DNA from: a virus
Lineage: Duplodnaviria > Heunggongvirae > Uroviricota > Caudoviricetes
DNA length: 11,545 bases
IMG/VR virus record: IMGVR_UViG_2713896785_000013
Strand: one strand, 5' to 3'
Shown here: positions 9,900-11,545 of the stretch, piece by piece
Layout: the number at the start of each line of letters is the position of its first letter
Position numbering within the stretch: position 1 is the first letter of the stretch
Notes under the pieces: generated by a model
What the model saw: the letters and a program-made list of their open reading frames with translations, nothing else
What the model was told of the DNA's origin: nothing
Databases searched by the model: none
Program-made: the position numbers and the translations under genes

Positions 9900-10043
9900 A
9901 CATCAAGAAGCTTAGGTTTTTCTACACAAAAAGCTTGACCATAACTCTTAGGCTATTCTAAATTCTACTCATCAAGACACCGCACGGTGTTCTCAGCAAA
10001 CAGTTCCGCTACCCGGCGTTAAGGGGAAGCAGAGGATTTCTCA
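9900..10043 (+). promoter_or_regulatory. Candidate early-left promoter/operator region downstream of dicA
   Basis: TTGACC at 9935-9940 followed by an AT-rich -10-like segment, plus CTTAGG half-sites at about 9911 and 9948 resembling those in the dicA/dicC spacer. Confidence 0.3.
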
Positions 10044-10400
10044 GTGGGCGAAGTCAAACATCAGAATGGAAGGCGTCCAGGGATCAGCAAAGAAACAGCG
10101 ATGGCGCTTTATATTGATATCAGCGCCATTGCCGGACAGGTAAGAGTTATCAGAGCGGTAACTAAGCGGTATGCGCCTTTACTTCAGAAAGTCTCTGGTG
10201 AGTGCACCGAAGATATTGTCAACGATTTCGTCATCGAACTGCGAGGACTCATCTTCAGTTACAAGGTGACCACAATTTTTGCAGATGGCTCCCGCGAAAC
10301 TGTCAGAGCCCTGCGGCTTAAAGGATGTGTCAAAGACTTAGCCACCACATTCTGGGCAAGAAAACTTGATTGTATTCATAACCAATTTCCTCTCGAGTAA
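10044..10400 (+). CDS. Hypothetical early-left protein (118 aa from GTG, or 99 aa from the ATG at 10101)
   Basis: GTG start with GAGGA at 7 nt. No recognisable family. Confidence 0.45.
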   Translation: MGEVKHQNGRRPGISKETAMALYIDISAIAGQVRVIRAVTKRYAPLLQKVSGECTEDIVNDFVIELRGLIFSYKVTTIFADGSRETVRALRLKGCVKDLATTFWARKLDCIHNQFPLE

Positions 10401-10472
10401 CAGACCCCTCAGAGGATACCACCTCGCCTGACGTGGTTAAAAAGCAGGCAACGCTAACCACAAGGAGCCGAC

Positions 10473-10691
10473 ATGCAGAAACGAGACCCCGTCATCATCG
10501 CGCCAGACTATACCGATGATGAACTTTATGAGTGGATGCACCAGAAAATTAAGGCGGTGCAGGACCTGAAATGGGCCAATGAAGCCAGGGCTAAGCAGGC
10601 TGAAAATCTGTCCGCTCTGGAGCAGGATATCACCAATCTGGAAAAAGCAGCGGCATTAAGCATTGCCAGAATGATTACATACCCACGTTAA
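10473..10691 (+). CDS. Hypothetical small protein (72 aa), helical/coiled-coil-like
   Basis: Strong SD AAGGAG 6 nt before the ATG. Same size as Qin YdfC but the sequence is not recognised. Confidence 0.55.
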   Translation: MQKRDPVIIAPDYTDDELYEWMHQKIKAVQDLKWANEARAKQAENLSALEQDITNLEKAAALSIARMITYPR

Positions 10692-10713
10692 TAGCTAACC
10701 AACGAGGCTAATA

Positions 10714-11121
10714 ATGGAATTTAAAGATTTACCAACGCCATTACAGGAAATGGCATCGAATATAGTTCGTTCACAACTGGCTACTCTTGACCTTAGTACC
10801 GCAGAAAAAGAAACCATCGATAATATGGTTCGTAATGTGCGCAATGCTTTTTCTGGGCTATATGGTTCTGATAATCAAAAGCAGGAAAGCGATGTTAATA
10901 AACGGGTAATTTCTGTTTGCGTGAATGGCCATGTTCTTTCATCAATCAAAACAGAAACGGCGACAGTCTTCGATTGCCTTTGCATTGTACAGAGCCTTGT
11001 TGATGCCCTGTTTCGTTCAGTGAATTTAGAAAATGATGCAAATCTGCGAGGGCGCATAATAGCACATCCATATGCACATACTTTAGGCTCTGTGGATATC
11101 AAAGATCCCACAAATCTTTAA
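10714..11121 (+). CDS. Hypothetical protein (135 aa)
   Basis: SD GAGG about 8 nt before the ATG; tightly packed 22 nt after the previous gene. Confidence 0.55.
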   Translation: MEFKDLPTPLQEMASNIVRSQLATLDLSTAEKETIDNMVRNVRNAFSGLYGSDNQKQESDVNKRVISVCVNGHVLSSIKTETATVFDCLCIVQSLVDALFRSVNLENDANLRGRIIAHPYAHTLGSVDIKDPTNL

Positions 11122-11332
11122 TGAAATAGTTAACGCGAATTGTACTTGCTCTTTCGGTTGCTTTCAGAATACGCGTTGAAACTGCTGGCGGTAATTTGGT
11201 ATTCCATTTATTAAAATCATGCCCGGGAAAGTACTCTTCGAAAATACTTTTAACTGCAGACTCGCCTATTGAAATGCTGCTTACCATGCGATTTTGATAA
11301 AGGCATTTAGCAATAAGAGTTGATTTTAACAT
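11099..11332 (-). CDS. Hypothetical protein (77 aa), convergent with and overlapping the end of the 135-aa gene
   Basis: ATG at 11332 preceded by AGGAGG; 3' end overlaps the 135-aa gene by 23 nt. Confidence 0.45.
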   Translation of the reverse strand: MLKSTLIAKCLYQNRMVSSISIGESAVKSIFEEYFPGHDFNKWNTKLPPAVSTRILKATERASTIRVNYFIKDLWDL

Positions 11333-11545
11333 TCACCCTCCTGAGGGTTGGTAATTAAGGAGTTCTCCACGGGTGAAGTGGAGTGCGTGCGCCGGACACG
11401 GGTGAACATCCGGCACTGACAGTTTACTGAAAGGATATTTCTCTGAAAAGTCAGAGCATAACGCGAAAGCGCACGGCGAGGTTGCTGGTTCATAGATAGC
11501 CTGTCGTTAAATTTTCGTCGACCGTGCGCTTCCGGTTGTGGCACT

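Follow-up and report, generated by a model that had tools for sequence, protein, structure and literature searches.

The early-left operon of PPompW, a defective lambda-like prophage of enterohaemorrhagic Escherichia coli (EHEC) with its insertion site at ompW, carries what appears to be a previously undescribed, conserved pair of convergent genes, which share a fixed overlap of 23 nucleotides (nt) at their 3' ends and are kept across many gut bacteria. The pair was found in positions 9900–11545 of a stretch of viral DNA of 11,545 nt (IMG/VR record IMGVR_UViG_2713896785_000013), hereafter the window. It consists of the C-terminal domain encoded by a forward gene, open reading frame 3 (ORF3), and of a small reverse gene, ORF4. 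In E. coli, the two genes occupy a slot between ydfC and dicF.

Proteins encoded by the convergent genes

ORF3 and ORF4 together make up a cassette present in 646 of the 5426 complete E. coli genomes. The ORF3 protein begins with an N-domain (approximately residues 1–50, MEFKDLP...) predicted to form a helical hairpin, followed by a disordered linker (residues 47–61) and an alpha/beta C-domain (approximately residues 62–135) that resembles phrog_23433, and its matches to PHROG families are split by domain. In the AlphaFold2 model, the predicted local distance difference test score (pLDDT) averages 73 for the whole protein and reaches about 84 in the C-domain. The N-domain is common to many E. 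coli proteins with unrelated C-termini, and the C-domain is found in other Enterobacterales as a stand-alone protein of 77–80 amino acids (aa). Several homologues of the C-domain from Citrobacter and metagenomes (P0178, P0218–P0220) carry an N-terminal C4 zinc finger of the ClpX type (PF06689, E ~1e-9), which could hint at a ClpX adaptor link or at dimerisation. A reading of the segment 'EANASGKT' in C-domain partners as a Walker A motif was discarded on account of its wrong spacing and of the E. coli copy, which reads 'DANLRGRI' here.

The ORF4 protein was modelled as a compact fold with very high confidence (pLDDT 97), and its grand average of hydropathy is −0.13. The family is constant in length, with 55–72% identity in Klebsiella, Dickeya, Xenorhabdus, Salmonella, Morganella, Yersinia, Serratia and Proteus. 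A profile search against 1.84 billion representative sequences returned 163 members at E<=0.001, nearly all of them stand-alone proteins of 74–80 aa. Both the ORF3 C-domain and ORF4 are clearly under purifying selection: across genera, the ratio of non-synonymous to synonymous substitution rates (dN/dS) is 0.15 for ORF4 and 0.26 for its partner, and the mean identity is 60% versus 44%. These cross-genus ratios were used because within E. coli the test of synonymous against non-synonymous changes has too few substitutions for either gene.

No relative of known function, in sequence or in fold, was found for ORF3 or ORF4. Searches of Pfam, NCBIfam and PADLOC with both proteins and with the product of ORF1 ('gene 1', considered below) gave sub-threshold noise only, and all three belong to PHROG families of unknown function. 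Sequence and profile searches of the PDB returned no match for ORF4 or the C-domain. Foldseek recovered only an uncharacterised homologue in BFVD, and for the ORF3 model no structural neighbour was found. Literature searches with the accessions, with ECs_2282 and on lambdoid defence hotspots yielded nothing on these genes.

Conservation of the pair across genera

In prophages of Serratia, Dickeya, Yersinia, Klebsiella, Proteus and Photorhabdus, an ORF4 homologue converges on and overlaps a gene for the C-domain, and the inducible phage Evi has the same module. Among all fetched loci, our script found 93 with an ORF4 homologue, a set that includes many near-identical E. coli copies and corresponds to about 20 independent lineages; a converging C-domain partner is present in 91 of them, 87 have an overlap of exactly 23 nt, and three have one of 26 nt. 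ORF4 is broken in two loci. The same 23-nt overlap recurs in a metagenomic pair (L100) with only about 45% identity. In Serratia, the overlap is a palindrome, AAAGATCTTT, which encodes K-D-L in both reading directions.

More distant ORF4-like proteins, with 40–50% identity, were observed without a C-domain partner or evident prophage context in a metagenome-assembled genome of Psychrosphaera (L018 3989–4228) and in soil metagenomes (L102–L112). Of the 13 short loci that a scan of metagenomes recovered, a single one has the partner, and context searches for the distant homologues in IMG/VR returned nothing. The occurrence of ORF4-like proteins alone, outside phage contexts, fits an autonomous activity of ORF4.

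A polymorphic slot in E. coli prophages

Whichever variant of the MEFKDLP protein a Qin-like E. coli prophage encodes, a small reverse gene faces the 3' end of its gene. Six types of such a slot were distinguished by the lengths of the forward and reverse proteins, namely, 135 and 77 aa in this window, 201 and 63 aa in L004, 121 and 66 aa in strain BL21 (L114), 133 and 76 aa in L116, 126 and 73 aa in L117, and 208 and 69 aa in L119. The N-domains of the six types are 32–91% identical. No relationship is seen among their C-termini or among their reverse proteins, apart from the C-domain common to the 135-aa and 201-aa forms, to which the 201-aa form adds a tail. These two forms part at residue 129, which corresponds to window position 11098 and thus precisely to the end of ORF4. 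Conserved sequence encloses the variable block, with the N-domain coding region at one end and the ribosome-binding site of the reverse gene plus the dicF leader at the other. The ydfC–dicF slot is polymorphic in E. coli, with the forward C-terminus and the reverse gene co-varying between conserved flanks. The Qin prophage of E. coli K-12 retains the flanks and has lost the block.

Homologues of ORF4 have a conserved TGnTATCTT, an extended −10 element, about 35 nt 5' of the ATG, with an inverted repeat CCAC...GTGG before it and a small hairpin after it. A cassette of the form AACCAC-N-GTGGTATYY stands 5' of the Serratia ORF4 homologues, of a zinc-ribbon gene of the window (see below) and of the BL21 reverse gene, always in the orientation of the reverse gene. 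For the E. coli ORF4, a search for a sigma-70 promoter gave no convincing candidate, the best being TTTTCA-17-TAAACT, which matches at 8/12 positions by eye. The convergent genes have no predicted terminator between them, so that each transcript should run antisense into the other gene. The ydfC–dicF interval of K-12 Qin (L003 3563–3640) keeps the sequence that elsewhere stands 5' of reverse genes (GTGGAGAACTCCTTAATTAC...), though without a reverse gene. The arrangement of ORF4 and dicF in E. coli has a possible counterpart in Klebsiella, where the direct neighbour of the ORF4 homologue matches DicF weakly (L013 3874–3922, minus strand; 29.9 bits, E=0.017) and has a terminator-like hairpin.

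The dicBF operon of PPompW

Positions 9400–11545 are 100% identical to chromosomes of E. coli O157:H7, O55:H7, O121 and O145, and 99.9% identical to deposited PPompW genomes; by this near-identity the window is assigned to PPompW. Of the complete E. coli genomes surveyed in PMC8112680, 44% have this prophage. The parent record (L001), which is 100% identical to the window, extends the view beyond its end (Table 1). Comparison with K-12 Qin (L003) identifies positions 9900–11545 as the promoter-proximal part of a dicBF early-left operon of the Qin type. The order is an operator-flanked promoter, a leader, a broken zinc-ribbon gene on the minus strand, ydfC, ORF3 facing ORF4 head-on, and the dicF leader.

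In blastn comparisons, window positions 9970–10028 match K-12 2938–2997, the leader 5' of ydfA, with 95% identity; positions 10473–10711 match K-12 3324–3562 (ydfC and a further 20 nt), also with 95% identity; and positions 11346–11543 match K-12 3563–3760 with 95.5% identity. The last two segments are contiguous in K-12, and in the window they are parted by the 634-bp (base-pair) block 10712–11345. Between window 10029–10472 and K-12 3009–3294 no similarity was found by blastn, and the Pfam search of the window proteins gave no DUF1391 (ydfA) match; ydfA and ydfB, the first operon genes in K-12, are replaced in this segment. The K-12 operon reads dicA/dicC - ydfA ydfB ydfC dicF dicB ydfD. PPompW shares with it the regulator pair, the promoter position, a leader of about 60 nt, ydfC, the long dicF leader, dicF, dicB and a DUF1482 gene. 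Unlike Qin, it has the region of a reverse ECs_2282 zinc-ribbon pseudogene in place of ydfA/ydfB, and the ORF3/ORF4 cassette between ydfC and the dicF leader. The dicF gene was recognised by a match to Rfam DicF of 43.5 bits (E=2e-7), which lies under the gathering score of 48; within 9900–11545, the Rfam search found no RNA family. DicB and the DUF1482 protein are annotated by RefSeq at L001 8492–8868, and PF05358 and PF07358 are present in related loci.

DicF, DicB and YdfD affect cell division, metabolism, phage receptors and lysis; to our knowledge, roles are known for these three products of the dicBF operon only, and we know of no inducing signal. The products of dicF, dicB and ydfD are toxic upon induction of the operon, and the function of ydfA, ydfB and ydfC is not known (PMC5069750).

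The DicA-like protein, which has an HTH_3 domain, is 63% identical to K-12 DicA, and the product of the divergent gene has a P22_Cro domain. The sequences flanking the operon promoter (9911–9925 and 9948–9964, 15–17 nt) are inverted copies of the dicA/dicC intergenic segments 9389–9403 and 9411–9427; the equivalent K-12 promoter is TTGACC-17-TAATCT. We infer from these repeats that the PPompW promoter is under repressor control, since operators common to the dicA/dicC region and the operon promoter fit the repressor control known from K-12 (PMC5069750). In Klebsiella, the C-domain gene starts about 40 nt 3' of a promoter with 10/12 matching positions, which overlaps ACAG-N7-CTGT palindromes, further copies of which lie between cI and cro, and Serratia has an equivalent arrangement. 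The C-domain gene is therefore the first gene of the early-left operon in these genera, directly 3' of a repressor-controlled promoter of the pL type.

The YdfC protein of the window is identical to that of K-12 in 68/72 residues (94%; 95% nucleotide identity), and PDB sequence and profile searches gave no match for it. In Proteus, a YdfC-like gene stands 5' of the partner, in the order ydfC-partner-ORF4. In Yersinia frederiksenii (L012 4212–4787, minus strand), a 191-aa protein fuses a YdfC-like coiled-coil segment to the C-domain through the linker 'DQKQES', which resembles the linker of ORF3. The fusion and the Proteus gene order tie ydfC to the ORF3/ORF4 module.

The original prediction, made from the DNA letters only, had rightly seen here a repressor-adjacent early-left operon of a Qin-like prophage, whose genes have no known function. 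Its four ORFs lie where it had placed them (Table 1), ribosome-binding sites are visible before three of them (AAGGAG before 10473, GAGG before 10714, and AGGAGG before the minus-strand ATG at 11332), and the fourth gene does converge on and overlap the last plus-strand gene. The picture of a three-gene operon in place of the ydfABC/dicF/dicB block has to be revised, because ydfC, dicF and dicB are present and only ydfA/ydfB are replaced. The statement that none of the genes resembles DicB or any recognised protein is wrong for the second gene, which is ydfC; homology to YdfA, YdfB or YdfC had itself been named as speaking against a new module. The convergent pair is a good candidate for the undescribed module that had been suspected.

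Table 1. Features of the early-left region of PPompW (positions refer to the window unless L001, the parent record, is given)
Feature	Position	Strand	Description
ydaT-like gene and cro/dicC-like gene	Before the dicA-like gene	minus	From the parent record
dicA-like repressor gene	9429–9836	plus	From the parent record
Early-left (dicB-type) promoter	9911–9964	plus	TTGACC (9935) - 18 nt - TAAATT (ends 9964); promoter scan
Operon leader	9970–10028	plus	95% identical to K-12, where it ends at the ydfA ribosome-binding site
'Gene 1' (ORF1)	10044–10400	plus	GTG start, 118 aa; in RefSeq WP_001240336, ATG at 10101, 99 aa; phrog_21318; probably a shadow ORF
ECs_2282-family CxxC zinc-ribbon gene, here a pseudogene	10179–10379	minus	66 aa when intact
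Promoter-like cassette of the zinc-ribbon gene	10414–10438	minus	TTAACC - 16 nt - TGgTATCCT, inverted repeat ACCAC...GTGGT; read from sequence
ydfC	10473–10691	plus	72 aa; named ydfC in RefSeq; phrog_1744 (E=9e-39)
Two-gene cassette	10712–11345	both	634 bp; absent from K-12 Qin
ORF3	10714–11121	plus	135 aa; WP_000394552; phrog_1363
ORF3/ORF4 convergent 3' overlap	11099–11121	both	23 nt
ORF4	11099–11332	minus	77 aa; WP_000920491; phrog_10348; five helices
dicF leader, untranslated, 5' part	11346–11545	plus	95.5% identical to K-12 3563–3760
dicF	L001 8268–8317 (window-equivalent 11667–11716)		120 nt beyond the window end; Rfam DicF, full length
dicB	L001 8492–8680 (window-equivalent 11891–12079)		346 nt beyond the window end; RefSeq
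DUF1482 (YdfD-like) gene, exonuclease gene, xis, int, ompW remnant	3' of the window end		From the parent record

Possible roles of the convergent genes

We tentatively favour an explanation, possible rather than probable, in which the two products are cognate antagonists with mutually exclusive expression, ORF4 being an exclusion or defence factor of the lysogen and ORF3 an early-lytic inhibitor. In the lysogen, the early-left promoter would be repressed and ORF4, made from a promoter of its own, would act alone, its likeliest role being that of a small factor for exclusion of, or defence against, incoming phages. Once the prophage is derepressed or a cell is infected, vigorous transcription from the early-left promoter would pass through ORF4 in antisense and silence it, and the forward partner, produced immediately, would neutralise any ORF4 protein made before. 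The prophage's own lytic programme would be spared, so that defence would come with self-immunity. A cognate antagonistic pair is suggested by the combination of a repressed forward gene, first or nearly first in its operon, with a separately promoted reverse gene, by the fixed antisense overlap, by the way in which forward C-terminus and reverse gene change together, and by the conservation of the pair across genera. Evidence for a cognate pair also agrees with the earlier suggestion of a relationship of the toxin-antitoxin kind between the convergent genes. ORF4 is favoured as the autonomous factor of the lysogen because it is the more conserved member and because its distant homologues lack the partner outside phage contexts. 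The direction of the antagonism is the weakest step of this explanation. A wider version, which we regard as rather doubtful, would extend it to the whole ydfC–dicF slot and to the first post-pL position in Serratia, Klebsiella, Yersinia, Dickeya and Proteus, as sites of polymorphic convergent cassettes in which a lysogen defence or exclusion protein of a new fold is opposed to an early-lytic inhibitor through an antisense switch.

Several observations weigh against the explanation by cognate antagonists. The E. coli copy of ORF4 has lost the extended −10 element, with GTGGAGAACT in place of GTGGTATCTT, so that expression of this ORF4 in the lysogen is putative. Charge complementarity and the mirror-tree correlation of the pair are weak (r=0.43), and the lineages behind the surveyed loci are far fewer than the loci themselves. 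The 201-aa variant keeps the C-domain where ORF4 is absent, so the pairing is not obligatory. Of the four proteins, none matched a PADLOC-DB v2 family at E<=1, and searches of Pfam, NCBIfam, PDB and BFVD gave no informative match for ORF3 or ORF4.

The opposite polarity would turn the variable C-domain of the forward protein into a harmful early effector of host takeover and the constitutive reverse gene into its antidote, which would shield the lysogen from leaky effector or from the same effector of a superinfecting relative. Its anatomy is the same, a repressed forward gene facing a self-promoted reverse gene, and the conserved N-part, variable C-part and cognate 3' gene resemble polymorphic toxin/immunity cassettes. 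Colicins that form pores also have convergent, constitutively expressed immunity genes. In addition, the neighbouring dicF, dicB and ydfD encode products that are toxic on operon induction (PMC5069750). We nevertheless consider a toxin with its antidote unlikely: the greater conservation of ORF4 (60% versus 44%) and its partnerless distant homologues would be unusual for a dedicated antidote, and no homology to toxin or antitoxin families was found.

Co-travel of the two genes could also result solely from their coding overlap and from recombination in the conserved flanks, if the reverse genes were independent morons, that is, accessory genes expressed in the lysogen and without any relation to the forward gene at the protein level. 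The exact limits of the variable block, at the N-domain and at the ribosome-binding site with the dicF leader, are what such an exchange would leave; one promoter cassette precedes unrelated reverse genes; the 201-aa form pairs the C-domain with a different reverse gene, and the zinc-ribbon gene has no convergent partner. What makes independent morons decidedly unlikely is that the C-domain/ORF4 pair with its 23-nt overlap persists across genera despite different surroundings, with partners diverged to 30–45% identity, which linkage by overlap alone is not expected to survive. Very improbable, finally, is a mainly regulatory role, with a head-on promoter that insulates the toxic dicF and dicB from leaky transcription by collision or antisense RNA and with small proteins of secondary importance, since both proteins are under purifying selection, the fold predicted for ORF4 is compact and very confident, and the pair is also found in prophages without dicB downstream. 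The lack of a predicted terminator between the convergent genes, the upstream cassette that K-12 keeps though the reverse gene is absent, and the toxicity of the distal operon products (PMC5069750) would all suit such insulation.

'Gene 1' and the reverse zinc-ribbon gene

The first of the predicted plus-strand genes is probably not a functional gene. Homologous DNA, 97–99% identical, is annotated in other strains by RefSeq with a gene on the opposite strand, an 'ECs_2282 family putative zinc-binding protein'. An intact allele (L113 2650–2850, minus strand) scores 57.3 bits against NF047912 (ECs_2282_CxxC; cutoff 37) and carries two CxxC motifs, CPEC...CKNC. By its 97–99% nucleotide identity, the minus-strand ORF of the window is the same gene as these intact alleles, from which it differs in a TAA at codon 14 (positions 10338–10340); position 10340 is A in the window and C in all nine other alleles. 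The function of the family is not known.

Among 10 alleles, the minus frame has 13 synonymous versus 3 non-synonymous changes (expected synonymous fraction 0.21, P=4e-7), whereas the 'gene 1' frame from ATG to stop has 8 versus 22 (P=0.41), and the part of it that overlaps the minus-strand gene 2 versus 14. The ydfC frame, a positive control of the substitution test, gave P=3e-6. Protein-level constraint is thus strong in the minus frame and not seen in that of 'gene 1'. Some alleles have a 1-nt deletion in the GTG-start extension of 'gene 1', and its apparent ribosome-binding site, GAGGA, is the end of the leader that in K-12 reaches the ydfA start. The protein has no match in Pfam, NCBIfam, PADLOC or PDB, and in the homologue search it occurs only in close E. 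coli relatives. The real gene at this position is probably the reverse zinc-ribbon gene, pseudogenised in this lineage, with 'gene 1' as its shadow ORF. The annotation would be corrected in this sense: the 99-aa hypothetical protein WP_001240336 is probably the translation of a shadow ORF that covers the zinc-ribbon pseudogene.

A 38-nt piece of the promoter-like cassette of the zinc-ribbon gene (10413–10450) is about 97% identical in many E. coli genomes without the rest of the region; it was matched in 1957 genomes, 937 of which have the full region. In BL21, the piece (L114 2501–2537) stands 5' of a different reverse gene.

Other features of the window

Several further elements lie outside the operon. 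A type I toxin-antitoxin locus of the hok/sok type is located at 4390–4539 on the minus strand (Rfam sok, 103.9 bits); the adjoining ORF of 60 aa (4267–4449, minus) is called 'gef, phage maintenance protein' in PPompW records. ARAGORN predicts two prophage tRNA genes, tRNA-Arg(tct) and tRNA-Lys(ttt), at 929–1003 and 1017–1092 (both minus), the first of which alone was found in Rfam. A match to the small RNA STnc100 (1–154, minus; 100.4 bits) is cut by the window start, and a weaker STnc100-like match covers the dicF–dicB spacer past the window end. The early region of the prophage also contains the adhesin gene paa/adfO of the AcfC family (approximately 4739–5485, minus). In O157:H7 PV15-279 (L001 3205–4417), IS1203 is inserted in a prophage replication gene; the element is absent from the window and from the PPompW records.

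Significance and comparison with known systems

The dicBF operon is a classic prophage locus, whose promoter-proximal part emerges here as a mosaic with a swappable convergent slot. One occupant of this slot has stayed together as a pair well outside E. coli, which provides a testable entry point with six natural cassette types. If the pair combines defence with self-immunity, or toxin with antidote, this would bear on the retention and interplay of the many defective prophages of EHEC. If the slots hold a polymorphic cassette family as outlined above, they would represent a hitherto undescribed class of prophage defence that brings its own self-immunity, of which ORF4 and the ORF3 C-domain would be the most widespread member.

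Like type II toxin-antitoxin systems, ORF3 and ORF4 are small, co-inherited and located in a prophage, and their products probably interact. Unlike such systems, they are convergent with a 3' overlap and not co-transcribed or autoregulated from a shared promoter, and neither matches a type II toxin or antitoxin family in Pfam, NCBIfam or PADLOC. Colicin/immunity loci and polymorphic toxin cassettes likewise combine a repressed forward gene with a convergent, self-promoted small gene. The plan of polymorphic effector/immunity cassettes, with a conserved N-part, a variable C-part, an adjacent gene specific to it and conserved flanks, recurs in the six slot types, as a likeness in the way of working and not as homology. 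ORF3 and ORF4 are far smaller than colicin or polymorphic toxin loci, without a delivery domain or homology, and their toxicity is putative.

For the explanation that we favour, a parallel is SieB/Esc of P22 and lambda, with a further sieB in the Rac prophage, in which an exclusion gene expressed in the lysogen lies in reverse orientation within the early-left operon and is accompanied by a phage escape function. SieB is larger and reportedly membrane-associated, whereas ORF4 is small, soluble and helical, with no similarity to it in sequence or fold; Esc is an internal product of sieB, whereas ORF3 is a convergent gene. As in the case of ORF4, sieB of Rac is a neighbour of the immunity region oriented opposite to the early-left operon, and Esc is a cognate phage function that spares the phage, as proposed here for ORF3.

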